This document shows, in pieces, positions 37,381 through 55,447 of a stretch of DNA of 64,000 nt. The notes below the pieces were generated by a model. That model had not been told where the DNA came from, did not search any database, and saw nothing but the letters and a program-made list of their open reading frames with translations. Source of the DNA: Oscillospiraceae bacterium. Lineage in GTDB: Bacteria > Bacillota > Clostridia > Oscillospirales > Acutalibacteraceae. The stretch lies in assembly GCA_902762875.1 (NCBI GenBank), contig CACWPS010000003.1, positions 94,550 through 158,549 of the forward strand, written 5' to 3'. Position 1 is the stretch's first letter. The number at the start of each line of letters is the position of its first letter. A program made the position numbers and the translations under genes.

Positions 37381-37409
37381 TTGACAAAAGGGAAAAAATA
37401 GGTTAAAAT
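37381..37409 (+). promoter_or_regulatory. Promoter TTGACA-17-TAAAAT of the aromatic amino acid operon
   Basis: Consensus -35, 17-nt spacer and a near-consensus -10. Confidence 0.65.
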
Positions 37410-37442
37410 AGTCTTTAGTTTTGAGAAGAAAGGGTGGACGGT

Positions 37443-37511
37443 ATGTTCGGTTACATAGCTTATCGATTTTATTACTATAGTACGGACTGCCTGTGCGCCC
37501 ATAAAGCTTAG
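37443..37511 (+). CDS. Candidate leader peptide MFGYIAYRFYYYSTDCLCAHKA (22 codons, 7 of them Phe/Tyr)
   Basis: My own translation; the ORF is below the track cutoff. GGGTGG lies 5 nt upstream of the ATG. It sits between the promoter and the terminator hairpin of the aro leader. Confidence 0.55.
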   Translation: MFGYIAYRFYYYSTDCLCAHKA

Positions 37512-37532
37512 TCTTTATTTGTTGTACGGACG

Positions 37533-37582
37533 GCCCGCAATCGCTCATGCGTGTATGCTATGAGTGTTGCGGGCTTATTTTT
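37533..37582 (+). terminator. Leader (attenuator) intrinsic terminator
   Basis: GCCCGCAA..CTCAT-loop-ATGAG..TTGCGGGC followed by TTATTTTT. It ends 16 nt before the first structural gene. Confidence 0.75.
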
Positions 37583-37598
37583 GAAAAGGGGTGAAACG

Positions 37599-38780
37599 AT
37601 GATTAACGAAAAAATGGCGGGACTTGGCAAAAAACGCTCGGTCATACGGGAAATTTTTGAATATGCAAAGCTTAGAAAAGCTGAAATCGGTGCGGAAAAT
37701 GTCTTCGATTTTTCCATTGGCAATCCAAGCGTCCCCACGCCCAAAGCGGTTACCGTTGCTTTGGAGCGTTTAATAAAAGAAAAGGATCCCGTGGCACTTC
37801 ACGGCTATACCTCGGCGCAGGGTGATTTGGGTGTAAGGCAGTCTATTGCAAAGCATATTGAGAGTAAATTTGATTTTAAGGCAGACCCTAACCTTATTTA
37901 TATGACCTGCGGTGCGGCGGCTTCCCTTACAATATGCCTTAATGCTATAGTAAATGCGGGGGACGAGGTTATAGTTTTAGCTCCCTTTTTCCCCGAATAC
38001 CGAGTTTTTGCAGAAAAGGCGGGGGCAAAGCTAATTGAGGTTTTGTGCCGCGAAGGGGATTTTCAGATTGATTTTACCGCTCTCGAGAAAGCGATTAATG
38101 CTAAAACCAAGGGGATAATTGTAAATTCGCCTAATAACCCGACAGGTGCGGTATTTTCGGAAGAAACTGTAATTAAGCTCGCCACATTACTTAATAAAAA
38201 GCAGGCGGAATACGGCACATATATTTATATAATCGCCGATGAGCCCTATAGGGAGCTTGTTTACGATATGAGCGTTCCTTATATTCCGAAATATTATAAT
38301 AACACCCTTGTGTGCTATTCCTACAGTAAGTCCCTGTCTTTGCCGGGGGAGCGAATAGGCTATATATTTGTTTCACCGAATGCAAATAACAGCGGCGAAG
38401 TTTATGCGGCGGTGTGCGGTGCAGGCAGGTCTTTGGGCTTTGTATGTGCTCCAAGCCTTTTGCAGTACACAGTGGGTGAGTGCGCAGATGTTCTACCTGA
38501 CCTTACGGTTTACCGCAAAAACCGCGACCTGTTTTTAGATGCCCTTACCGAATACGGCTACACCGTAGTTCCGCCCGACGGTGCCTTTTACCTCTTTGTA
38601 AAGTCCCCTGAGGAGGACGCATATGCCTTTTGCGACAGGGCTAAAAAATACGAGATTTTGTTGGTACCGAGCGACGATTTCGGCTGTAAGGGATATGTTA
38701 GAATTTGCTACTGCGTTGAAACAGACCAAATTAAGCGTGCTTTACCTAAGTTTAAGGCGCTTATGGAAGAATATAAATAA
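37599..38780 (+). CDS. Pyridoxal-phosphate-dependent aminotransferase (class I; probable aromatic/aspartate aminotransferase)
   Basis: SYSKSLSLPGERIGY (PLP-lysine motif) and NPNNPTG-like SPNNPTG. The ATG at 37599 follows GGGGTG; the track start 37551 lies inside the terminator. Confidence 0.9.
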   Translation: MINEKMAGLGKKRSVIREIFEYAKLRKAEIGAENVFDFSIGNPSVPTPKAVTVALERLIKEKDPVALHGYTSAQGDLGVRQSIAKHIESKFDFKADPNLIYMTCGAAASLTICLNAIVNAGDEVIVLAPFFPEYRVFAEKAGAKLIEVLCREGDFQIDFTALEKAINAKTKGIIVNSPNNPTGAVFSEETVIKLATLLNKKQAEYGTYIYIIADEPYRELVYDMSVPYIPKYYNNTLVCYSYSKSLSLPGERIGYIFVSPNANNSGEVYAAVCGAGRSLGFVCAPSLLQYTVGECADVLPDLTVYRKNRDLFLDALTEYGYTVVPPDGAFYLFVKSPEEDAYAFCDRAKKYEILLVPSDDFGCKGYVRICYCVETDQIKRALPKFKALMEEYK

Positions 38781-38791
38781 CGGAGACGGTT

Positions 38792-39895
38792 ATGACAGAT
38801 TTAGAAAAGGCAAGAAAGAAAATCAACGAAATAGACAAAGAGATGGCACAGCTTTTTGAAAAGCGTATGGAAGCGGTAAAAGCTGTTGCCGAGTACAAAA
38901 AGGCAAACGGAGTAAGGGTTACCGATTCAGCACGGGAGGCAGAGGTTATAAAGCGTAATTCAGAGCTTATAGAAAACGAAACCCTCAAGCCTTATTTCGT
39001 AAGCTTTTTGCAGAGTAATATGGATATTTCAAAGGCATATCAGCACAGACTGCTTGAGGGTATGCGGGTTGCCTACAGCGGGGTTGAGGGGGCGTTTGCA
39101 AATATTGCCGCAAGCCGTATTTTCCCTGACGCTACAGCTGTTCCGTACCCGAATTTCAAGGCGGCGTACGATTCGGTGGTGAACGGTGAGTGCGACTGTG
39201 CGGTACTGCCTATAGAAAACAGCCATAACGGCGATGTTATACAGGTTATGGATTTAACCTTCTTCGGTACCCTTTATATCAACGGAATTTACGATATTGA
39301 GGTTGTGCAAAATCTGCTTGCCGTCAAGGGCACTACAATGGACGAGGTAAAAAGGGTAATAAGCCATCCTCAGGCGCTGGGTCAATGCGCAAAATACATA
39401 AGGGAGCACGGCTTTGAGCCTGTAGAAGCAGTAAACACTGCGGTCGCGGCAAAGCAGGTTGCCGAGGCAGGCAGACACGATACTGCGGCGATAGGCAGTA
39501 GCGAAGCGGCGAAAATTTTCGGTCTTAAAAAGTTAGAGGCGCACATTAACGAAAGCGGCACCAATACCACCCGTTTTGCGGTATTTTCTAAGACACCCAA
39601 AGCCGCCGCTGATGCCGACAATCAGTTTATAATGCTCTTTACCGTATCTAACGAGGCGGGGGCGCTGGGCGAAGCTATAAACACCATAGGAAAATACGGC
39701 TTTAACCTGCGTGCTTTGAAATCCCGCCCCACAAAGGAGCTTATCTGGAGTTACTATTTTTACGCCGAGGGCGAGGGAAATATCAACAGCGAAAAGGGCA
39801 GGGAAATGCTTAATGAACTTAAGGAAAAGTGCAGCAGTATAAGAATTGCGGGCAGTTTTGAAAAAGAAGTTATATTAAAGGGTGAGGACGAATGA
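38792..39895 (+). CDS. pheA: Bifunctional chorismate mutase / prephenate dehydratase
   Basis: N-terminal AroQ-type CM helix region (INEIDKEMAQLFEKRM). There is a PDT domain and a C-terminal ACT domain with the Phe-binding motif (ESRP consensus) present as KSRP. Confidence 0.9.
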   Translation: MTDLEKARKKINEIDKEMAQLFEKRMEAVKAVAEYKKANGVRVTDSAREAEVIKRNSELIENETLKPYFVSFLQSNMDISKAYQHRLLEGMRVAYSGVEGAFANIAASRIFPDATAVPYPNFKAAYDSVVNGECDCAVLPIENSHNGDVIQVMDLTFFGTLYINGIYDIEVVQNLLAVKGTTMDEVKRVISHPQALGQCAKYIREHGFEPVEAVNTAVAAKQVAEAGRHDTAAIGSSEAAKIFGLKKLEAHINESGTNTTRFAVFSKTPKAAADADNQFIMLFTVSNEAGALGEAINTIGKYGFNLRALKSRPTKELIWSYYFYAEGEGNINSEKGREMLNELKEKCSSIRIAGSFEKEVILKGEDE

Positions 39896-40902
39896 TAATG
39901 CCTGTTAGAACCTCAACAGGGGAGTATAATATCTACCTTGAACGGGGCTCCCTTGACAAGGCGGGGGAATACCTTAATTTAAACCGCCGAGTATTTATCG
40001 TGACCGACAGCGGTGTACCCGCCGAATATGCAAAAACAGTAGCTAATCAGGCAAAGTCCCCCGTTATTGTAACGGTAAAAGAGGGGGAGCCCTCAAAGTG
40101 CTTTGATACCTATAAATATCTGCTTTCCGAAATGGTAAAGAATGAATTTACCCGTAGTGACTGTGTGGTAGCAGTAGGCGGCGGAGTTGTGGGCGATATG
40201 GCGGGCTTTGCGGCGGCAAGCTATATGCGAGGTATTGATTTTTACAATATTCCCACCACCGTTTTGTCACAGGTGGATTCCTCTGTGGGCGGTAAGGTAG
40301 CCATTGATTTTGAGGGGTATAAAAACCTTGTGGGTGCCTTTTATCCCCCGAAAGCGGTTATTATCGATTCCGATACCCTTAGAACCCTTCCCGACAGGCA
40401 GATTTCAAACGGACTTGCTGAGTCGGTCAAAATGTCCCTTACCTCGGACGAAGAGCTGTTCGGAATTTTTGAAACAGAAGATATAATGGAAAATATCGAC
40501 CTTATAATCGAGCGCTCCCTTAAAATCAAGCGTTATGTTGTTGAGCAGGACGAAAAAGAGGGAGGACTGCGTAAGATTCTAAACTTCGGTCACACCTTAG
40601 CCCACGCCATTGAGAGCGAGAACGAAATGCAAAACCTCTACCACGGCGAATGTGTGGCGTTGGGTATGATTCCTATGTGTTCGGAAAGTGTTAGGGAACG
40701 GTTGATACCCGTCCTTCAAAAGCTAAATTTGCCCATAGGTACCGAAATTGAGATAGATAAGCTGATTTCAGCTATGCGCCACGATAAAAAGCTTATGGGG
40801 GACAAAATAACCGTTATTTTCGTACCCGAAGCGGGGAAATTTGAAATGCGGGAAATGCCCTTTGATACCTTCGCAAAGGAAATTAAGGAGAGCTTTAAAT
40901 GA
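39892..40902 (+). CDS. aroB: 3-dehydroquinate synthase
   Basis: GGGVVGDMAGFAAASYMRGI and LNFGHTLAHAIE motifs. 336 aa. Confidence 0.9.
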   Translation: MIMPVRTSTGEYNIYLERGSLDKAGEYLNLNRRVFIVTDSGVPAEYAKTVANQAKSPVIVTVKEGEPSKCFDTYKYLLSEMVKNEFTRSDCVVAVGGGVVGDMAGFAAASYMRGIDFYNIPTTVLSQVDSSVGGKVAIDFEGYKNLVGAFYPPKAVIIDSDTLRTLPDRQISNGLAESVKMSLTSDEELFGIFETEDIMENIDLIIERSLKIKRYVVEQDEKEGGLRKILNFGHTLAHAIESENEMQNLYHGECVALGMIPMCSESVRERLIPVLQKLNLPIGTEIEIDKLISAMRHDKKLMGDKITVIFVPEAGKFEMREMPFDTFAKEIKESFK

Positions 40903-41990
40903 AAAATACTATAGGAACCTCGGTAGCACTTACCATTTTCGGCGAAAGCCACGGGGCTGCTGTAGGTGCGGTGCTGGACGGCTTAGCCCCCGGTATTGCG
41001 GTTGATGAAGAATTTATCCGCTCACAGCTGACACTTCGCCGCCCCTTTGGTGATATTTCCACACCGAGAGTAGAGCCCGATAATTTTGTTATTGAAAGCG
41101 GTGTTTTTGAGGGTAAAACCACAGGCACGCCAATTTGTATTTTAATACCCAATGTTAATACAAAGTCAAAGGATTACAGCGAGATTAGAAGCAAGGCACG
41201 CCCCGGGCATGCTGATTTTACGGCATTTGAAAAGTACCACGGCTTTGAGGATTACCGAGGCGGCGGCCATTTCAGCGGAAGAATTACTGCGGGAATAGTA
41301 GCGGCGGGAGCGATTGCAATTTCTGCCCTTAAAGCAAAAGGAATATATGTGGGAACTCATATTTCCCGCCTTGCAGGGGTAAAGGACCGTAGCTTTGCGG
41401 ATTTTAAAGAGGATATAAAGTCGGTTAATAATAAGGTTTTTGCGGTGCTTGATAAAAATGCTGAAACGGCTATGTTAGCGGCGGCAAAGGCGGCAGGATC
41501 TGACGGCGACAGCGTCGGCGGTGTGCTTGAAACGGCGGTTGTAGGTCTCCCCGCAGGAGTGGGCGAGCCTTGGTTTGACAGTGTTGAAAGCAAGCTTTCC
41601 CGTGCGTTATTCGGTATTCCCGCAATAAAGGGTGTTGAGTTTGGCGGCGGTTTTGACCTTTGCGATATGAGGGGAAGTGAAGCCAACGACCCTATAAGAA
41701 TAGAAAACGGCGAAATTAAAACCCTTTCAAACAATAACGGCGGCATAAACGGCGGCATTACAAACGGTATGCCCGTTGTCTTCCGTTGTGGGGTAAAGCC
41801 TACACCTACAATACACAAGGAACAGCGGACGGTGGATTTTATAAACCGAGAGAATGTTCAGTTTACGGCGGGCGGAAGGCACGACCCCTGTATTGTGCAT
41901 AGGGCAAGGGTGGTTATTGACAGTATAACTGCTATTGTACTTTGTGATATATTAAGTGAACGCTTCGGAACGGACTGGTTGGCAAAATAA
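40899..41990 (+). CDS. aroC: Chorismate synthase
   Basis: FGESHG N-terminal signature and RPGHAD. 363 aa. Confidence 0.95.
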   Translation: MKNTIGTSVALTIFGESHGAAVGAVLDGLAPGIAVDEEFIRSQLTLRRPFGDISTPRVEPDNFVIESGVFEGKTTGTPICILIPNVNTKSKDYSEIRSKARPGHADFTAFEKYHGFEDYRGGGHFSGRITAGIVAAGAIAISALKAKGIYVGTHISRLAGVKDRSFADFKEDIKSVNNKVFAVLDKNAETAMLAAAKAAGSDGDSVGGVLETAVVGLPAGVGEPWFDSVESKLSRALFGIPAIKGVEFGGGFDLCDMRGSEANDPIRIENGEIKTLSNNNGGINGGITNGMPVVFRCGVKPTPTIHKEQRTVDFINRENVQFTAGGRHDPCIVHRARVVIDSITAIVLCDILSERFGTDWLAK

Positions 41991-43243
41991 TGGAGTACGG
42001 TTGCATAGGTGAAAAGCTGACCCACAGCTTTTCCAAAATAATTCATTCTAAAATTGCAGATTATAATTACGAGCTAAAGGAAATTGCAAAGGCAGACCTT
42101 GAAACCTTTATGAAAAATGCCGATTTTAAGGCGATAAATGTTACTATCCCCTACAAACAGGCGGTAATCCCCTACCTTTATGAAATAAGCGATACCGCAA
42201 GGAAAATCGGTGCGGTTAATACCATTGTAAACAAAGGCGGTAAGCTTTACGGCTACAACACCGATTACGAGGGTATGCGGGCGTTGATTAAGCGTCAAGG
42301 TGCTGACCTTTCGTGCAAAAAGGTTTTGGTTTTGGGCAGCGGCGGAACTTCTAAAACTGCGGCGGCTGTGGCAGAAAGCCTTGGGGCAAAAGAGGTGTTG
42401 AGGGTTTCCAGAGGCGGTAATGACGGCGCTGTTACATATGAATATGCACTTTCTAATCACACAGATGCCGAGGTCATTATCAACACTACACCCTGCGGAA
42501 TGTATCCTAATATCGGGGAGACAGCTATTGATATATCCCTTTTCCCGAAGCTTTGTTCCGTAACAGATGCGGTTTATAATCCGCTATCTTCTGCACTTGT
42601 GACTACCGCTAAAGAAAAAGGGATTAATGCGGTGGGCGGACTTTATATGCTGGTTGCACAAGCGGTTTTCGCCTGCGAAAAATTTACGGGCGATTCTATA
42701 CCCATAAGTGTTACCGACAGGGTTTATAAAGAAATACTGCTTGATAAAAGAAATATCGTTTTAATCGGTATGCCCGGTTGCGGTAAAACCACTATAGGTA
42801 AAGCTGTGGCAAATGAGACGGGCAAAAGCTTTATCGATACAGATGATGAGATTGTTAAAAAAGCGGGAATATCAATCCCCGAGATATTTGAGCAGTTCGG
42901 CGAAAAGAAATTCCGTGAAATCGAGGCAGAGGTTATAAAAGAGGTTTCAGCACAGCAGTCGGCGGTTATTGCTACAGGCGGCGGTGCGGTGCTTAATTCC
43001 TTAAATGTTTCCCTATTAAAGGAAAACGGAATTATAGTTTTTATAGACCGCCCGATTGAGGATTTGGTAACTACAGACGACCGACCCCTTTCCTCAAACA
43101 GAGAACTTTTAGAAAAACGCTATAAGGAAAGGTACGGTATTTATAAATCGTCTGCTCAAGCGGAAATTAAGGCGGTTAAAGATTTAAGCGTTAATATTAA
43201 AGCCGTAGAGGAGGCTTTCTTAAATGAAAATATTAGTGATTAA
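41990..43243 (+). CDS. Fused shikimate dehydrogenase / shikimate kinase
   Basis: The N-terminal ~250 aa are AroE-like (GEKLTHSFS..., GSGGTSK). The C-terminal part has the P-loop GMPGCGKTT plus DTDDEI, as in AroK. Confidence 0.9.
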   Translation: MEYGCIGEKLTHSFSKIIHSKIADYNYELKEIAKADLETFMKNADFKAINVTIPYKQAVIPYLYEISDTARKIGAVNTIVNKGGKLYGYNTDYEGMRALIKRQGADLSCKKVLVLGSGGTSKTAAAVAESLGAKEVLRVSRGGNDGAVTYEYALSNHTDAEVIINTTPCGMYPNIGETAIDISLFPKLCSVTDAVYNPLSSALVTTAKEKGINAVGGLYMLVAQAVFACEKFTGDSIPISVTDRVYKEILLDKRNIVLIGMPGCGKTTIGKAVANETGKSFIDTDDEIVKKAGISIPEIFEQFGEKKFREIEAEVIKEVSAQQSAVIATGGGAVLNSLNVSLLKENGIIVFIDRPIEDLVTTDDRPLSSNRELLEKRYKERYGIYKSSAQAEIKAVKDLSVNIKAVEEAFLNENISD

Positions 43244-43661
43244 CGGCCCTAACATTAATATGCTTGGCATTAGAGAGCCGGGGATTTACGGTAAGGATAA
43301 TTTTAATACCCTCTGCGAAAGTGTTACAGTCTACGCAAAGGAAAAGGGTATTAAGGTAAAGCTGTTTCAGTCCAACCACGAGGGTGCCCTTGTGGACGAA
43401 ATTCAGGGGGCATACGGTGTGTTTGACGGGATTGTTATTAACCCCGGTGCTTACACCCACACAAGTATAGCATTACTTGATGCTATAAAGGCGGTATCAA
43501 TACCCACGGTTGAGGTGCATATTTCGGATGTGGCGAGCCGTGAGGACTTCAGGCAGGTAAGCTACATTCGTGCCGCCTGTGTTAAAACAATCTGCGGCCA
43601 CGGAATAAAGGGTTATACCGAGGCTATGGAATTTTTAAAGGAGAATTACGGGGATATTTAA
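43224..43661 (+). CDS. aroQ: Type II 3-dehydroquinate dehydratase
   Basis: INGPNINMLGIREP and NPGAYTHTS motifs. 145 aa. Confidence 0.95.
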   Translation: MKILVINGPNINMLGIREPGIYGKDNFNTLCESVTVYAKEKGIKVKLFQSNHEGALVDEIQGAYGVFDGIVINPGAYTHTSIALLDAIKAVSIPTVEVHISDVASREDFRQVSYIRAACVKTICGHGIKGYTEAMEFLKENYGDI

Positions 43662-44870
43662 ATGGTTGTAACTATTAATAAAAGCACCGCCTTCGGTCGG
43701 GTTAAAGCACCCCCCTCAAAAAGTATGGCGCACAGGTATTTAATCTGCGGGGCGCTGTCCCCCGAAAGCGAAATAAAGGGTGTGGGCTTTTCGGAGGATA
43801 TTAAGGCTACCCTTTCCTGCCTTGAGGCTCTGGGTGCTGATATTGAAATAAGCGGAGATACTGTCCGAATCGGCGGAATAGATATGGAAAAAGGAATAAA
43901 AAAGGATAAGCTATTCTGTAACGAATCAGGTAGCACGCTAAGATTTTTAATTCCGCTGTCTCTGCTTTTTGAGAGAGAAATTACCCTTAAAGGAACAAAA
44001 CGGCTTATGGAGCGCTCCCTTTCGGTATATGCAGATATTTGCGCATCTACTGGCTTGGAGTTCAGCCAAATAGGGGAGTCGGTCACAGTAAAGGGTAAGC
44101 TAAAGGCGGGTAAATACTCTGTTAGGGGAGATGTTTCAAGCCAGTTTATAAGCGGACTTATGTTTGCTTTGCCTATGCTCCCAAACGACAGCGTTATTGA
44201 TATTACGGGTGCGCTTGAGAGCGGCTCATACCTTGGAATGACCGTAAAGGCACTCGCTGACTTCGGTGTTAGAATAAGCCGCACCGACGAGAATACGATA
44301 TACATTAAGGGTAATCAAACCTATAAGCCGAGAAGTCTTACGGTTGAGGGAGATTATTCTAACGCCGCATTTTTTGATGCGTTAAATGCTTTGGGCGGAA
44401 ATGTTGCGGTATCGGGACTGAATAAGAAAACTTGTCAGGGAGACGCAGTTTACAAAAAGCTATTTGATGTGCTTCTGCACGGCACCCCCGAAATCGATAT
44501 TTCCGACTGCCCCGATTTAGGCCCTGTGCTTATGGCGGTGGCGGCGGCTAACAACGGTGCGCATTTCATAGGAACACGCCGCCTTAAAATTAAGGAGAGC
44601 GACAGGGGAGCGGCTATGGCAGAGGAGCTTGCAAAGTTTGGCTGTAGGGTGCAGGTAGGCGATAACGATATAACCGTTTATAGCTGTGAGCTTAAAACTC
44701 CCGAATTGCCGCTTGACGGGCATAATGACCACAGGATTGTAATGTCCCTTGCGGTTTTATGCACCTTGACGGGAGGCAAGATATACGGAGCTCAAGCTGT
44801 GTCTAAAAGCTTTCCCGATTTCTTTGAGCGGTTTTCCTCGCTCGGCATTGATTTAGAGGTTGAAGAATAA
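43662..44870 (+). CDS. aroA: 3-phosphoshikimate 1-carboxyvinyltransferase (EPSP synthase)
   Basis: PPSKSMAHR N-terminal motif and DHRIVMS near the C-terminus. 402 aa. Confidence 0.95.
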   Translation: MVVTINKSTAFGRVKAPPSKSMAHRYLICGALSPESEIKGVGFSEDIKATLSCLEALGADIEISGDTVRIGGIDMEKGIKKDKLFCNESGSTLRFLIPLSLLFEREITLKGTKRLMERSLSVYADICASTGLEFSQIGESVTVKGKLKAGKYSVRGDVSSQFISGLMFALPMLPNDSVIDITGALESGSYLGMTVKALADFGVRISRTDENTIYIKGNQTYKPRSLTVEGDYSNAAFFDALNALGGNVAVSGLNKKTCQGDAVYKKLFDVLLHGTPEIDISDCPDLGPVLMAVAAANNGAHFIGTRRLKIKESDRGAAMAEELAKFGCRVQVGDNDITVYSCELKTPELPLDGHNDHRIVMSLAVLCTLTGGKIYGAQAVSKSFPDFFERFSSLGIDLEVEE

Positions 44871-45730
44871 TGAAGTTAAATAAGGATATGAATATATTAA
44901 TTGTAGGCCTTGGTCTTTTGGGAGGAAGCTACGCTGAATCCCTTAAAAAGCAGGGCTACAGGGTAAGTGCTATTACGAGAAGTCAGTCCTCGGTTGACTT
45001 TGCCCTCAGTAAGGGTATAATTGATTACGGCACTACAGAGGTTGAACCCGAGTTGCTGGGAAACGCCGATTTGGTGGTCTTCGCACTTTATCCCCATATT
45101 TTTACAGAATGGATAACCGGGAACCAGCACCTTTTAAAAAGCGGTGCGGTAATAACCGATGTTACGGGTGTTAAAGGCTGTATTGTTGGAAAAATTCAGG
45201 ATATTTTAAGGGATGATGTGGAGTTTATCGCCGCCCACCCAATGGCAGGCAGAGAGGTCTGCGGAGTGCAGAACAGTACGGACGAGATTTTTAAGGGTGC
45301 CAATTACATTGTGGTCCCCACCGAGAAAAATACTATGTCTGCAATCAAGCTTTGCCGTGATTTGGGTGAAAAGTTGGGCTTTCGGCAGGTGTCCGAGCTA
45401 TCTGTTACAATGCACGATAAAATGATAGCCTTTTTGTCCCAGCTAACCCACTGCATAGCCGTTTCCCTTATGTGTGCCGACAATACCCCGGGGCTTGAGT
45501 ATTACACGGGTGATTCATTCAGGGATTTAACAAGAATCGCCAAGATAAACGACGAGATGTGGAGCGAGCTGTTCCTATACAATAAGGACGCTTTGCTTAC
45601 GGAAATGGATAAATTTAAGGCTTCCTTTGATGAGCTTTATGAAAAAATTAAAACAGGAGACCGTGACGGTATGCGCCAAATGATGAGAACATCAACCGAG
45701 CGCAGAAAACGCTTCGATAAACATATATAA
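44870..45730 (+). CDS. tyrA: Prephenate dehydrogenase
   Basis: NAD-binding IVGLGLLGGS and AAHPMAG. 286 aa. Confidence 0.9.
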   Translation: MKLNKDMNILIVGLGLLGGSYAESLKKQGYRVSAITRSQSSVDFALSKGIIDYGTTEVEPELLGNADLVVFALYPHIFTEWITGNQHLLKSGAVITDVTGVKGCIVGKIQDILRDDVEFIAAHPMAGREVCGVQNSTDEIFKGANYIVVPTEKNTMSAIKLCRDLGEKLGFRQVSELSVTMHDKMIAFLSQLTHCIAVSLMCADNTPGLEYYTGDSFRDLTRIAKINDEMWSELFLYNKDALLTEMDKFKASFDELYEKIKTGDRDGMRQMMRTSTERRKRFDKHI

Positions 45731-45750
45731 ATAATAAGGAGTTATTAATT

Positions 45751-46782
45751 ATGAATATGACATTTAAAAGAAAGCTTCCCATTCCGCAGCAGATTAAGAC
45801 ACGCTACCCCGTAACCGAGGAAATGGCAAAGGTTAAGCTTAAGCGTGACGAGGAATTAAAAAGGATTTTCAGGGGTGAGTCGGATAAGTTTATACTTGTA
45901 ATCGGTCCCTGCTCTGCAGACAGCAGCGAGCCTGTACTCGATTACATATCTCGCCTTCGCACCGTTCAGGATAAGGTGGAGGATAAAATACTTATCGTTC
46001 CCCGCATATACACCAATAAGCCGAGAACCACAGGTGACGGCTACAAGGGTATGCTTCACCAGCCCGACCCTGATGAAACCCCCGATATGCTTAAGGGTAT
46101 TGTAGCCATAAGAGAGCTTCATATGGCGGCTTTGCGTGATTACGGCTTTTCCTGTGCGGACGAAATGCTGTACCCTGACAATCACCGTTATCTTTCCGAC
46201 CTGCTTTCCTATGTTGCGGTGGGTGCCCGTTCGGTTGAAAACCAACAGCACAGATTAACCGCCAGCGGTCTTGATGTTCCTGTAGGAATGAAGAACCCCA
46301 CAAGCGGCGACCTTAGCATTATGATGAACTCTATAACCGCCGCACAGCATAAGCACACCTTTATTTACCGTGGTTGGGAGGTCGACAGTGAGGGCAACCC
46401 CTACGCCCACGCAATTTTACGGGGATATATTGATTATGCGGGTAAGAACGCTTCAAATTACCATTATGAGGACTTATTGAAGCTTTACGAGCTTTACGGT
46501 AAGTCGGGACTCCGAAACCCCGCTGTTATAGTTGATACAAACCATGCAAATTCAGGAAAGCAATGCCTTGAGCAGGTTAGAATTGCTAAGGATGTTGTAT
46601 ATAGCTGTAACCACAATAAGGACATTCGTTCAATGGTAAAGGGCCTTATGATTGAAAGCTACATAGAGGACGGCGCCCAGAAAATCGGCGAGCATATCTA
46701 CGGAAAATCCATAACCGACCCTTGCCTTGGTTGGGAAAAAACTGAGGAGCTTATCTACAAGATAGCCGATACATTGGAATAA
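45751..46782 (+). CDS. aroF: 3-deoxy-7-phosphoheptulonate (DAHP) synthase, class I
   Basis: GPCSADS, KPRTT and GARSVENQQHR motifs of AroF/G/H-type enzymes. 343 aa. Confidence 0.9.
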   Translation: MNMTFKRKLPIPQQIKTRYPVTEEMAKVKLKRDEELKRIFRGESDKFILVIGPCSADSSEPVLDYISRLRTVQDKVEDKILIVPRIYTNKPRTTGDGYKGMLHQPDPDETPDMLKGIVAIRELHMAALRDYGFSCADEMLYPDNHRYLSDLLSYVAVGARSVENQQHRLTASGLDVPVGMKNPTSGDLSIMMNSITAAQHKHTFIYRGWEVDSEGNPYAHAILRGYIDYAGKNASNYHYEDLLKLYELYGKSGLRNPAVIVDTNHANSGKQCLEQVRIAKDVVYSCNHNKDIRSMVKGLMIESYIEDGAQKIGEHIYGKSITDPCLGWEKTEELIYKIADTLE

Positions 46783-46783
46783 G

Positions 46784-47209
46784 GTGATTAAAACGGAAAA
46801 GTATAAGCATAAGGTCCAATACTATGAGACCGATAAAATGGGGTTTGTTCATCACTCAAACTATATCCGTTGGTTTGAAGAGGCAAGGAGCGACTTTTTT
46901 GAAAAAATCGGCGCACCCTATGCGGTGACAGAGAGTATGGGGATAATAAGCCCTGTGCTGTCTGTCAGCTGTGATTATAAAAAATCCTGCTTCTACGGCG
47001 AAGAAGTAATTATTGAAACCACCCTCGAAAAGATGGGGAATGTAAAGTTCTTTGTGAGCTATAAGGTTTTCTCCGAGGAGGGGGAGCTTAGGGCAGAGGG
47101 TACCACCTCCCACTGCTTCCTAAATACCGAGGGTCAGGTTATCTCCTTAAAACGGGTAAAGCCTGAGCTTTTTGAAACCCTGCTAAAATTTGTAGGAAAA
47201 ACTTTTTAA
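46784..47209 (+). CDS. Acyl-CoA thioesterase (hotdog fold, YbgC/4HBT type)
   Basis: YYETDKMGFVHHSNY N-terminal motif. 141 aa. It starts 1 nt after the aroF stop. Confidence 0.8.
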   Translation: MIKTEKYKHKVQYYETDKMGFVHHSNYIRWFEEARSDFFEKIGAPYAVTESMGIISPVLSVSCDYKKSCFYGEEVIIETTLEKMGNVKFFVSYKVFSEEGELRAEGTTSHCFLNTEGQVISLKRVKPELFETLLKFVGKTF

Positions 47210-47255
47210 TAACGGATTATTTTTTCAATTTCAGCCGATAATATATTCGGTGAGC

Positions 47256-47864
47256 ATGTTGAAAAGAAAAATATTCGGAATAATTAAGCTTTTGTCTTTG
47301 TGTGTTATCTGCTGCTCGCTTTTTGTGGGCGGCGGATATTTTTATCTGCGCCAAAATTTTAAGGAGGCGGAAAATAAGGTTTCAAGCATACCTTACAGCT
47401 TTTCTGCCCCTGAAAATAAGGGGATAATGCTTGATATTTGCGATAATCTTACCTTTTTATATCTTGATTTCGGCGAAAAAAGATTAAAGGTTATTATTCC
47501 GCCCGAAGCAGATTATAATGGAGAAATTTTCGGCTATCCAATAGATTTTACCGTAAAAACGGATTATAGGTTTGTTTCAAGGCTTATTGATTGCGCCGAC
47601 GGAATAGAGCTTGAGATAAGCGGAGAAACACTCAGATATACCGGTGTTCAGATATCGGATATTTTAAGCCGCACTGTGGATACTTCGGAATTGAAGAGGA
47701 AAATAATAATTGCTTTGCTTGAAAAAATAGGAAAAAACGGCTTGGACGGAGAATTTTTTAATTACCTTGTTGAAAGCGCTGATACAGATATTACCGTGCC
47801 CGATTGCTACTATTGGGAAAGATATATAACGAAGCTTTGCAAAAACGGCGTAATCATTAATTGA
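47256..47864 (+). CDS. Hypothetical membrane-anchored protein
   Basis: About 200 aa with one N-terminal TM helix. I recognised no motif. Confidence 0.5.
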   Translation: MLKRKIFGIIKLLSLCVICCSLFVGGGYFYLRQNFKEAENKVSSIPYSFSAPENKGIMLDICDNLTFLYLDFGEKRLKVIIPPEADYNGEIFGYPIDFTVKTDYRFVSRLIDCADGIELEISGETLRYTGVQISDILSRTVDTSELKRKIIIALLEKIGKNGLDGEFFNYLVESADTDITVPDCYYWERYITKLCKNGVIIN

Positions 47865-47906
47865 CAAACAGCCCTTTTCAAGTTATACTATATTATGTAA
47901 TTTGTA

Positions 47907-50012
47907 ATGGGGGTAATAATTTTGGATAAGGTAAGTGAAATTTTCGGTACTAATGTATTTAACGATTCGGTAATGATTGAAAGATTACCGAAGGATACAT
48001 ACAAAGCCTTGAAGTCCGCCATAAAAGAGGGCAAGGGTATCGACAGCAGCATTGCAGATACGGTTGCCGCCGCTATGAAGGACTGGGCGATTGAAAAGGG
48101 TGCCACGCATTTTACCCATTGGTTCCAGCCCTTGACAGGCATTACCGCCGAAAAGCACGACAGCTTTATTTCTCCTACGGGAGACGGTCATATAATAATG
48201 GAATTTTCGGGCAAGGAGCTTATAAAGGGAGAGCCTGATGCTTCCTCTTTCCCGTCGGGGGGACTCCGTGCCACCTTTGAGGCAAGGGGATATACCGCAT
48301 GGGATCCCAGCTCTTACGCTTTTGTAAAGGACGATACACTCTGTATTCCCACCGCCTTTTGCTCTTATTGCGGCGAGGCGCTTGACCAAAAAACACCTTT
48401 GCTGCGCAGTATGGATGCTATAAATAAGCAGGCTTTAAGAATTGTCCGCCTTTTCGGTATGGATGAGGTTAAGCGTGTAAGTGTGACAGTCGGCCCCGAG
48501 CAGGAGTACTTCCTTGTGGACAAGGCCATGTACGATAAGCGCCCTGACCTTGTTTTCTGCGGCAGAACACTTGTAGGCGCAATGCCACCTAAGGGTCAGG
48601 AAATGGACGACCACTATTTCGGCGTTTTAAAGCCGAGGGTTGCCGCCTTTATGCGTGACCTTGACAACGAGCTTTGGAAATTGGGGGTGCTTGCAAAGAC
48701 CGAGCATAATGAGGTTGCCCCCGCACAGCACGAATTAGCGCCCATATTTACAACCATAAATATCGCCGCCGACCATAATCAGCTTACAATGGAAATGATG
48801 AAGAAGACCGCTTTAAAGCACGGGCTTGTGTGTTTATTGCACGAAAAGCCCTTTGACGGTGTTAACGGCAGCGGCAAGCATAACAACTGGTCCCTTTCTA
48901 CCGATACGGGCATAAATTTCCTCAAACCCGGCAAAAATCCGGGTGAAAATTCACTCTTTTTGCTGACCCTTGCCGCAGTTATAAAGGCGGTGGACGAGCA
49001 TCAGGATTTACTTAGAATATCGGTTGCTACCGCAGGTAATGACCACCGCTTAGGTGCAAATGAGGCTCCCCCCGCAATAATTTCTATGTTCTTGGGCGAT
49101 GAGCTTACCGATTTGCTTTTATCCATAGAAAGCGGAACCCATCACGATAATGCCGAAAAGGTTAAAATGACCGTCGGTGCGGATATTATTCCGCTCTTCG
49201 GCCGTGACAATACCGACCGTAACCGCACCTCGCCCTTTGCTTTTACGGGTAATAAGTTTGAGTTCAGGATGTTAGGCTCGGCGTCATCTATTTCCGATAC
49301 CAATGTAATGCTCAATACTATGGTTGCCGATACTTTCGCACAGTTTGCGGACAGACTTGAAAAAGCGGACGACTTTGGAGCGGAGCTTAACAGCATAATA
49401 AAAGAGACCGTAGCAGAACATAAGCGTATTATATTCAACGGTGACGGTTATTCCGACGAATGGAAGGAAGAGGCGAAAAGACGGGGACTTCTCAATCTCA
49501 CAAGTACGGTTGACGCACTCCCGCTCCTTAAAACCGAGGATAACATAGCTCTCTTTGAGCGCCACGGGGTTTTAAACCGTGCGGAAATTAATTCGAGAGT
49601 TGACATTATTCTTGAAAATTATTCTAAGGTTATTCATATTGAGGCGCTTTCCCTTATTGAAATGATGAACCGTGATGTAATTCCCGCAATAACCCAGTAT
49701 AACAGCCGTCTTTGCACCGCTCTTATCAACAGGCGCAGCTTAGGACTTAAATTTGACGAGCTGGCGGATACCGAGATTATCGCCCGTCTTTCCGCCGCCG
49801 AGACCGAGATTTACAAGCTTACAAACGACCTTAAAATGTCGGTTATGTCAGCGGAGAAAATCCCCGATATGCTGGACCGTGCGACTGAATACCACGATAG
49901 GGTATTAAAGCTGATGGCTGATATCCGTAAGTATTCCGACAGCGCCGAGGCGGTCGTTTCACGGGACTGCTGGCCCTATCCCAGCTACGGAGAGCTGTTA
50001 TTCAATATCTGA
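47907..50012 (+). CDS. glnN: Glutamine synthetase, type III
   Basis: About 700 aa with a GSIII-type N-terminus ([26 protein letters not shown]) and a catalytic core ([10 protein letters not shown]). The start may be the TTG at 47922, 8 nt after GGGGGT. Confidence 0.9.
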
Positions 50013-55361: not shown

Positions 55362-55447
55362 GGTGCCGCTGGCCGGACTTGAACCGGCACGGTATCGCTA
55401 CCGAGGGATTTTAAGTCCCTTGTGTCTGCCTATTCCACCACAGCGGC
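55361..55447 (-). tRNA. tRNA-Leu (anticodon UAA), CCA encoded
   Basis: Hand-folded cloverleaf. Acceptor is GCCGCTG/CAGCGGC and the D arm is GTG..CAC. The anticodon arm is AGGGA-CTTAAAA-TCCCT. The long variable arm is CGGTA-gcga-TACCG and the T arm is GCCGG-TTCAAGT-CCGGC, followed by ACCA. Confidence 0.95.

Follow-up and report, generated by a model that had tools for sequence, protein, structure and literature searches.

How is the synthesis of phenylalanine (Phe) and tyrosine (Tyr) controlled in a clostridial lineage that carries the genes for the whole pathway in one long operon? The question is raised by a stretch of 64,000 nucleotides (nt) of contig CACWPS010000003.1 from an Oscillospiraceae bacterium (assembly GCA_902762875.1), referred to here in full as the window, in which a leader region at positions 37381-37598 lies ahead of an aromatic amino acid operon. 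The leader contains a short open reading frame (sORF) rich in Phe and Tyr codons and, downstream of it, an intrinsic terminator. An earlier note on this DNA had proposed that the region is a leader-peptide attenuator. The comparative evidence and the structure modeling presented below support that proposal, and the element is very probably a ribosome-mediated transcription attenuator that senses charged tRNA-Phe and tRNA-Tyr. The features of the leader, with the Shine-Dalgarno sequence abbreviated as SD and minimum free energy as MFE, are as follows.

37381-37409, plus strand: sigma-70-type promoter, with -35 box TTGACA (37381-86), 17-nt spacer and -10 box TAAAAT (37404-09), agreeing with 11 of 12 consensus positions.
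37432-37458, plus strand: region 1 (A), with SD GGGUGG, AUG and codons 2-6; 5′ arm of the 1:2 anti-antiterminator hairpin of MFE folds.
37443-37511, plus strand: leader open reading frame (ORF) of 22 codons, MFGYIAYRFYYYSTDCLCAHKA, with stop codon UAG at 37509-11.
37446-48, 37452-54 and 37461-63, plus strand: the other Phe or Tyr codons of the leader, F2, Y4 and Y7, respectively.
37467-37478, plus strand: putative regulatory codon run UUU UAU UAC UAU (F9 Y10 Y11 Y12), located in the 1:2 hairpin loop.
37475-37500, plus strand: region 2 (B), 3′ arm of 1:2 over its full length and 5′ arm of 2:3 over 37483-37498 (CGG.CUG.CUGUGCGC).
37501-37518, plus strand: hairpin P2, AUAAAG-CUUAGU-CUUUAU, whose loop holds the leader stop codon; closes the interior of 2:3.
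37521-37537, plus strand: region 3 (C), G.UGUACGG.CGG.CCG, 3′ arm of the putative 2:3 antiterminator.
37533-37582, plus strand: intrinsic terminator 3:4, with stem at 37533-37574 (GCCCGCAA.CGCUCAUGC / GC.AUGAGUGUUGCGGGC) and U-tract UUAUUUUU at 37575-82.
37588-37601, plus strand: SD GGGGUG and ATG (37599) of the first structural gene, a pyridoxal phosphate (PLP)-dependent aminotransferase.
37599-47209, plus strand: the operon predicted to be regulated, as assigned by Pfam/NCBIfam, with gene gaps tight or overlapping.

The earlier note had described the promoter, the leader ORF with GGGTGG (37432-37437) 5 nt before its ATG, the hairpin with its T-tract and the 16-nt gap between the hairpin and the aminotransferase ATG, and all of these are present as it gave them. 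Taken as a whole, the promoter scan gives no more sites here than chance would (2, with 2.7 expected). In 26 of 26 related leaders, however, the same position has a TTGAC box with a TAnAAT-like box about 23 nt further downstream. The codon content was also given correctly: seven of the 22 codons are for Phe or Tyr (2F+5Y), with an FYYY run and no Trp codon. Within the set of 430 SD-preceded sORFs of 10-45 codons from both strands of the window, the leader ORF is the only one with at least five Phe or Tyr codons in six consecutive codons. Phe and Tyr account for 7.7% of codons in the genes of the window as against 7 of 21 in the leader (P ~7e-4). As in a classical attenuator, the sORF has an SD and a start codon, is promoter-proximal and stands ahead of the structural genes; the codons for the amino acids of the pathway are clustered; and the terminator is located between the leader ORF and the first structural gene. 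The run is adjoined on its 5′ side by the Arg codon CGA (37464-66), the rarest Arg codon of the genes in the window (2.6 per 1000), and CGA UUU UAU is kept before or at the run in most lineages. The conserved CGA may be a programmed slow codon, or it may reflect mere conservation at the RNA level.

The whole leader folds better than 200 of 200 shuffles (z = -3.0, RNAfold). The terminator, at the DNA level a bulged G+C-rich hairpin followed by TTATTTTT at 37575-82, has a folding energy of -28.3 kcal/mol and was missed by a simple terminator scanner because of its stem bulges. In the MFE fold, 37432-37458 pairs with 37475-37500, which leaves the F9-Y12 run in the loop; this 1:2 hairpin has an energy of -22.3 kcal/mol, and 2:3 together with P2 has -16.8 kcal/mol, with P2 being weak on its own in the window (-1.9 kcal/mol). 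This order of energies, 1:2, 2:3 and 3:4, is like that of the classical trp leader. The last 5 nt of region 3 (37533-37, GCCCG) also form the base of the terminator 5′ arm, and the pairings 1:2, 2:3 and 3:4 are mutually exclusive.

The earlier note could find no convincing antiterminator. The folds do offer one, the helix between 37483-37498 and 37521-37537, and this 2:3 helix is the predicted antiterminator; the folding that the note had recommended as a check does yield mutually exclusive terminator and antiterminator structures. The two weak pairings that it had listed fare differently. GGACUGCCUGU/ACGGACGGCC is part of 2:3 when placed in the correct register, whereas CGAUU/AAUCG is of 5 bp and is not conserved in L012-type leaders. 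Two direct repeats had been suggested as possible protein-binding sites, an explanation that is not needed. Both copies of the first, GTACGGAC, are present, and the repeat arises because regions 2 and 3 are partners in overlapping helices: region 2 is quasi-palindromic, so that region 3 resembles its 5′ half. The second, TAGTCTTTA, is likewise present twice; its first copy overlaps the region of the -10 box and transcription start and is not conserved in L001-L004, and on the sequence comparison the repeat is due to chance.

GTDB species representatives were scanned with the aminotransferase, which gave 70 orthologous loci (numbered with the prefix L). The closest, at 87-91% identity, are from metagenome-assembled genomes (MAGs) labeled Acutalibacteraceae, ‘Ruminococcaceae’ or Clostridia, all of the class Clostridia. 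The leader is found in 26 of the genome loci, 25 of them full-length and one (L009) cut off at a contig end. A metagenome scan, in which the matches listed are mostly distant orthologues (54-69% identity), added at least six further leader-bearing loci. About 32 other genomes and metagenome contigs of Acutalibacteraceae-like type have the same layout ahead of the orthologous operon, at least six of these being metagenomic. The SD, the start codon and the in-frame Phe/Tyr run are kept in 29 further full-length leaders whose aminotransferases are 61-91% identical to that of the window, and the ORF and its aromatic run persist even at 61-77% identity.

The run takes the forms FYYY, FYYF, YFRFYYF, YYYFF, YFYYF, FYLY, YFYFYF, FYFYYF, YYFYYF and FFYF, i.e., it stays Phe/Tyr despite shuffled order, synonymous changes and varying flanking residues. 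Across lineages the leader peptides have 19-25 codons with 5-8 Phe or Tyr and Trp in none, and the ratio of the two aromatic residues runs from 2F+5Y (window) to 5F+3Y (L021). Examples are MSVYAMYRFYYFNTDCLYTRA; (M)FVKLYFRFYYFNSTDCLYTVKA; MKKAFAFSYYYFFNIADLNTPSAAR; MFAKVDFSYFYYFTSADRQCTRAVN; MFKNSYFYFYFTMDCLCSFVSK; (M)KYNFSKFYFYYFTTTDCLYNAR; (M)LFNKGYYFYYFSQGCLTSFENA; and MIRNFKIRFFYFISADCLCAE. Indels inside the ORF come in multiples of three. Between the run and a conserved GGAC anchor in region 2 there are 5, 8 or 11 nt, and the frame of the anchor is identical in 12 of 12 lineages; the anchor lies 17-29 nt after the first codon of the run, and in all lineages the stop codon follows 22-28 nt after the anchor, within or beside P2. 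Frame-keeping indels, run-to-anchor spacing and a fixed anchor frame are the signatures expected of a translated regulatory ORF rather than of an untranslated loop. The C-terminal ‘TDCLC’, on the other hand, is conserved as RNA and not as peptide, being ADLNT in L014 and ADRQC in L015. Sequence conservation in region 2 (ACGGACUGYCUGU) and in the loop motif CGAUUUUAU is beyond what is normal for attenuators.

A covariance model built from 26 leaders has a single match in the window, at 164.5 bits. On loci outside its training it matches L009 (partial, at the contig end), L085, L097 and L082 at 48-110 bits, and it has weaker matches in L038 (28.6 bits) and L084 (21.7 bits). Every match is directly upstream of the orthologous aminotransferase gene, and no match was obtained in 61 more distant loci. 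L083 (1260-1500) and L084 (20-280) have a variant leader (MNTMFYYAMRFYYYYAVSFVRQAV / MKTTYYYAMRFYYYTASL) followed by two successive terminator-like hairpins, which share the arm CGCAGA(A/G)UGCC; the architecture downstream is different and more complex.

The helices were compared on a plain MAFFT alignment of 26 leaders and later on a model-based alignment of 29 leaders, the latter being fitted to the terminated state and not to 2:3; terminator anchors in the relatives were set from folds and checked by eye. On the MAFFT alignment, 1:2 plus the terminator is 79.9% paired, with 24 pairs changed on both sides; none of 500 column shuffles reaches any of the measures, and slid controls are 32-42% paired. 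The model-based alignment raises the number of pairs changed on both sides to 29, a figure that again none of 500 shuffles attains. The terminator is found in all relatives, and 13 of its 18 stem pairs have changed on both sides. The aromatic run is conserved and the helices covary, which are the two properties that the earlier note had proposed to look for in an alignment of orthologous leaders.

With regard to the antiterminator, leaders were folded only from just after the run through the terminator 5′ arm, and a 2:3 helix enclosing P2 is predicted in 26 of 26 leaders of the genome set. The base of 2:3 in the relatives uses the first 4-11 nt of the terminator 5′ arm, and all 13 lineages have a hairpin at or around the stop codon, its sequences being unrelated. 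On the MAFFT alignment, 87% of 2:3 is paired (25-40% in slid controls, and 25-41% over both alignments). The model-based alignment gives 90.3%, and both partners have changed in 5 of 13 pairs, a result that none of 500 shuffles reaches. RNAalifold also recovers 2:3 de novo from 18 region-2-to-region-3 segments aligned by plain MAFFT, with compensatory changes in 5 of 9 pairs. Examples of compensation are L097, which has GGAU...AUCU for the GGAC...GUCC of others, the terminator 3′ arm changing in step; L082 (CUGUCUUA : UAAGACAG); and L014 (GCGGACCUGAA : UUCGGAGUCCGC).

An alignment-free test with RNAduplex compared cognate with non-cognate segment pairs in 13 lineages. Regions 1 and 2 of the same leader pair better than regions from different leaders (-19.9 vs -15.9 kcal/mol; p<5e-5), as do regions 2 and 3 (-20.2 vs -17.5 kcal/mol; p=0.0011). 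Two control pairings show no cognate preference, region 2 with the terminator 3′ arm (-12.2 vs -12.1 kcal/mol; p=0.43) and region 1 with the terminator 5′ arm (-12.2 vs -11.6 kcal/mol; p=0.26), and both were rejected as candidate antiterminators on these values.

From these elements, and with a textbook ribosome footprint of about -15 to +16 around the P site, we infer ribosome positions, kinetics and a response to tRNA charging. Transcription would start a few nt after 37409, and the RNA, about 165 nt long if terminated as predicted, could form three overlapping helices. When Phe and Tyr are sufficient, a ribosome loaded co-transcriptionally would reach the UAG at 37509, where it would cover about 37491-37522, the core of 2:3 (the 3′ half of region 2 and the 5′ half of region 3). 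After release of the ribosome, 1:2 would re-form (-22 kcal/mol) and outcompete 2:3. With 2:3 blocked in either manner, 3:4 would form and RNA polymerase would terminate at 37575-82. When Phe-tRNA or Tyr-tRNA is scarce, the ribosome would stall at any of the seven Phe/Tyr codons within codons 2-12. With F2, Y4, Y7, F9 or Y10 in the A site it would cover or split region 1 and end at or before about 37483, which would prevent 1:2 and leave region 2 free to pair with region 3 once this is transcribed. The 2:3 helix would then hold GCCCG of the terminator stem and allow read-through into the aminotransferase-pheA-aro-tyrA operon. Without translation, 1:2 would form and termination would be the default. 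The distances of anchor and stop codon, the masked folds and the segment folds agree with the geometry of a classical attenuator when footprints are given textbook values. The terminator is thermodynamically dominant in every full-length fold, and therefore read-through in the model must be a kinetic outcome, as in trp.

Several points weigh against this reading. The overlap of 2:3 with the terminator is no more than 5 nt in the window (37533-37), and 2:3 is about 11 kcal/mol weaker than 3:4, so that antitermination would have to be a kinetic effect and could be leaky. The 1:2 hairpin would bury the SD and AUG of the leader itself, and initiation of translation is therefore needed within about 55 nt of transcription, ahead of the synthesis of region 2, a timing that is assumed. 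Were the ribosome to stall at the last two Tyr codons, it would cover the region-2 CGG, which is in competition with the terminator. The covariation of 2:3 is not above that of shuffles on the first MAFFT alignment because region 2 is highly conserved; it becomes significant only once divergent members are added, and rests on few divergent lineages (L013, L014, L015, L082 and L097). L038 (2328-2487) keeps helices like 1:2 and 2:3 as well as a terminator, and has a Phe/Tyr run in no frame. Its sORF is MFCPVCL*, the alternative being a 40-codon GTG ORF that runs through the terminator; this copy may be decayed or re-purposed, or may reflect a MAG or assembly error. T-rich intergenic DNA also yields Phe/Tyr-rich ORFs by chance, as in L131 (1390-1470) and L136 (1390-1490), where such sORFs (MKVFLSFFFRYYYN...) are present in a T-rich divergent promoter region with no terminator. 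Phe/Tyr richness alone is therefore not used here as evidence for an attenuator. Finally, the hosts are uncultured MAG lineages.

A functional role that does not involve translation should also be considered. A metabolite (Phe, Tyr, prephenate or chorismate), an uncharged tRNA or an RNA-binding protein might stabilize 1:2 or 2:3, the sORF then being incidental. The unusually strong conservation of region 2 and of the loop motif, the sequestering of SD and AUG in 1:2, seemingly unfavorable to translation, and the helices without a Phe/Tyr run in L038 are in keeping with such a switch. It is nevertheless unlikely, since the loop varies in length and sequence in divergent lineages and always contains an in-frame Phe/Tyr run with SD and start codon, with indels in multiples of three, and since L014 and L015 have replaced the sequence of region 2, and its peptide, yet kept both the pairing and the run. 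The conservation of region 2 is explained by its double pairing, with region 1 and with region 3. Nor is there a match to a known RNA: the Rfam search that the earlier note had suggested as a check gave no family at gathering score and none, T-box included, at E<=10 over a 351-nt region, and none in 20 related loci; the Rfam leader families (Phe_leader, Leu/phe leader and the Trp, His, Thr and Leu leaders) likewise have no covariance-model match to the leader. An array of (G/U)AG triplets is absent as well. A TRAP-regulated leader, with 9-11 such triplets 2-3 nt apart, was rejected as a candidate: the leader has six, and at that spacing they form no chain longer than 1. Sensing of tRNA-Phe or tRNA-Tyr by a T-box riboswitch, here a diverged one, would be the usual Firmicute solution; GGGUGG superficially recalls the T-box sequence, and diverged T-boxes may escape Rfam (PMC5314783). 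Such a T-box is extremely improbable here, in view of the absence of an RF00230 match at E<=10 on the 351 nt or in the relatives, the position of GGGUGG about 95 nt upstream of the terminator, where it serves as SD and not as the 5′ side of an antiterminator bulge, and a leader of only about 165 nt that is devoid of a Stem I/specifier architecture.

Two further explanations retain parts of the proposed attenuator. The antiterminator might be a pairing of region 1 with region 3 (GGGU of the SD with GCCC, and GUUCG..UAC with GUACGGAC), region 1 being released when a stalled ribosome masks region 2. Cognate pairs are favored in this pairing too (-14.4 vs -12.2 kcal/mol; p=0.007), it is strong in L010 (-25.5 kcal/mol), and GGGU:GCCC appears in a masked fold of the window. 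In most lineages, however, it is weak and differently shaped (-8 to -15 kcal/mol), it must bridge across the stalled ribosome, which is sterically awkward, and region 1, if left free, would allow a second ribosome to load; the cognate signal is moreover an expected by-product, since region 1 has its true partner in region 2, the 5′ half of which region 3 resembles. We consider this pairing quite unlikely as the antiterminator. It is very improbable, too, that the sORF encodes a functional small hydrophobic peptide and that the hairpin is a leaky or constitutive terminator with no sensing of amino acids. The ORF is indeed conserved and has an SD, but at the peptide level only the aromatic run is kept (‘TDCLC’ is an RNA-level feature), the length varies between 19 and 25 residues, and the element is always tied to the Phe/Tyr operon. 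Thus a leader-peptide attenuator with 2:3 as its antiterminator is the reading that we prefer.

Orthologous operons show regulatory turnover, with an attenuator, a candidate operator or no leader. In four loci (L022:2456-2470, L025:977-991, L032:2457-2471 and L039:2457-2471) the leader is absent and a perfect palindrome, GTTAACAATGTTAAC, is found between a -10-like box and the SD; the aminotransferase-aro operons of these loci are at about 64% amino acid identity. The palindrome is a candidate repressor operator, and from its sequence and position RNA-based control seems to have been swapped for protein-based control of the same operon. In L011 (2200-2500) and L081 (1200-1500), both at 69-71% identity, about 10 nt separate the stop codon of an upstream mreB-like gene from the start of the aminotransferase gene, and no promoter, leader or terminator is found between the two genes.

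A more specific reading is offered tentatively, and we regard it as possible rather than probable. Region 1 is the leader's own ribosome-binding site, and therefore only one ribosome per transcript could read it. The attenuator would then be a lineage-specific ‘single-shot’ sensor of two amino acids, in which one co-transcriptionally loaded ribosome reads the leader before 1:2 closes the site, and the F:Y ratio would tune the supra-operon to the limiting amino acid. The sensor would have arisen within Acutalibacteraceae-like Clostridia and, in sister lineages, been exchanged for the GTTAACAATGTTAAC operator or lost by fusion to an upstream gene. If this is true, the operon offers a clean example from nature of how control by RNA and control by protein replace each other.

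With or without the single-shot feature, these results suggest that abundant uncultured gut Clostridia (Acutalibacteraceae and relatives) probably control aromatic synthesis by a leader peptide that reads two amino acids, and not by T-box or TRAP. RNA-family catalogues lack this well-supported family, which numbers about 30 representatives at species level and now has a working covariance model, and the antiterminator proposed here opens the model to a direct test by compensatory mutagenesis. For specialists it is a useful addition rather than a surprise.

The operon encodes, in order, the aminotransferase, chorismate mutase-prephenate dehydratase (pheA), aroB, aroC, an aroE-aroK fusion, aroQ, aroA, prephenate dehydrogenase (tyrA), 3-deoxy-D-arabino-heptulosonate 7-phosphate (DAHP) synthase and a YbgC/FadM-type thioesterase. 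All seven shikimate steps and both terminal branches, to Phe and to Tyr, are thus encoded, and Pfam detects no trp genes in the operon, which bears out the gene content given in the earlier note. The fusion joins shikimate dehydrogenase and shikimate kinase in one protein of 417 aa (41990-43243). Of the 11 genes then counted, ten stand and the last, ORF 47250-47864, is uncertain. Neither Pfam nor NCBIfam gives a match for this ORF, and a strong terminator-like hairpin lies within it at 47306-47338 (14 bp, G+C-rich, followed by TTTTTATCTG); for these reasons the operon is counted as 10 or 11 genes. The hairpin is either the end of the operon or coincidental inside a coding segment for a membrane anchor; the N-terminus of the ORF is transmembrane-like and its SD is poor. 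Just downstream of the aromatic operon, in the stretch 47861-50012, a strong promoter-like TTGACA-17-TATACT (11 of 12 positions) is found directly ahead of a type III glutamine synthetase gene. The sole Rfam match in the whole window is one tRNA gene (55364-55447, minus strand).

How does the leader compare with known systems? Escherichia coli pheL and Corynebacterium glutamicum aroR come closest. The general statement of the earlier note, that leader-peptide attenuators are classic in Proteobacteria while Firmicutes usually use T-boxes or TRAP for aromatic operons, needs a qualification, as leader-peptide attenuators have precedents in Firmicutes, with shown or predicted cases in Listeria, Streptococcus, his operons and Acholeplasma. 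The leu/phe leader of Lactococcus, an Rfam family, is such a Firmicute leader-peptide attenuator. One has been shown for ilv-leu in Listeria (Rli60; PMC5864092), and others are predicted for leuA of Streptococcus (PMC5314783) and for his operons (PMC9413887). These share with the present leader the mechanism and the phylum, where they exist beside T-boxes. They differ in being concerned with branched-chain amino acids, Leu or His, in belonging to Bacillales, Lactobacillales, Peptostreptococcaceae and Erysipelotrichales, and in having no sequence relation to it.

A further system is the Acholeplasma uORFC-13-1 motif, a candidate upstream ORF (uORF) with Phe codons found upstream of aroF by bioinformatic prediction (PMC8632094). 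It too is a uORF with Phe codons located directly upstream of an intrinsic terminator, here before a DAHP synthase gene and in a Firmicute-related lineage; the taxon and the first gene are different, Phe codons alone are described, no 1:2 / 2:3 / 3:4 scheme is described for it, and the Rfam scan of the leader did not match it. In C. glutamicum, the aroR leader before the aroF operon has a Phe-Tyr-Phe sequence and is reported to respond to Phe and not to Tyr (Neshat et al. 2014, as summarized in PMC11802643). By that description the likeness is one of function: a ribosome-mediated attenuator with a mixed aromatic run and shikimate-pathway genes. As there described, aroR differs in being actinobacterial, in having three regulatory codons and in controlling the aroF operon rather than a complete Phe/Tyr supra-operon. 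An aromatic leader in Clostridia or Oscillospirales is not described in the full-text literature searched, a weak negative because most subscription journals are outside its coverage. The leaders presented here are a conserved family with no entry in RNA-family catalogues, and the mechanism is a classic one that involves no new principle.

In gammaproteobacteria, pheA and pheST are under the control of classical attenuators with Phe codons (PMC3082878, PMC11802643). As in E. coli pheL-pheA (and pheST, trpL and hisL), a promoter-proximal sORF is rich in codons for the end product. Further likenesses to pheL-pheA are the 1:2, 2:3 and 3:4 helices, an intrinsic terminator ahead of an operon with chorismate mutase-prephenate dehydratase, and a terminator more stable than the antiterminator. 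There is no sequence or covariance-model similarity (Phe_leader is unmatched), and the host is a lineage of Clostridia rather than a gammaproteobacterium. In comparison with textbook attenuators, the 1:2 loop carries the run, the leader's own SD and AUG are part of region 1, the overlap of 2:3 and 3:4 is short (4-11 nt), and a CGA codon precedes the run in most lineages. Finally, pheL reads Phe only, whereas the clostridial leader has mixed Phe and Tyr codons and, unlike pheL-pheA, would govern the whole common shikimate pathway together with both terminal branches in one operon.

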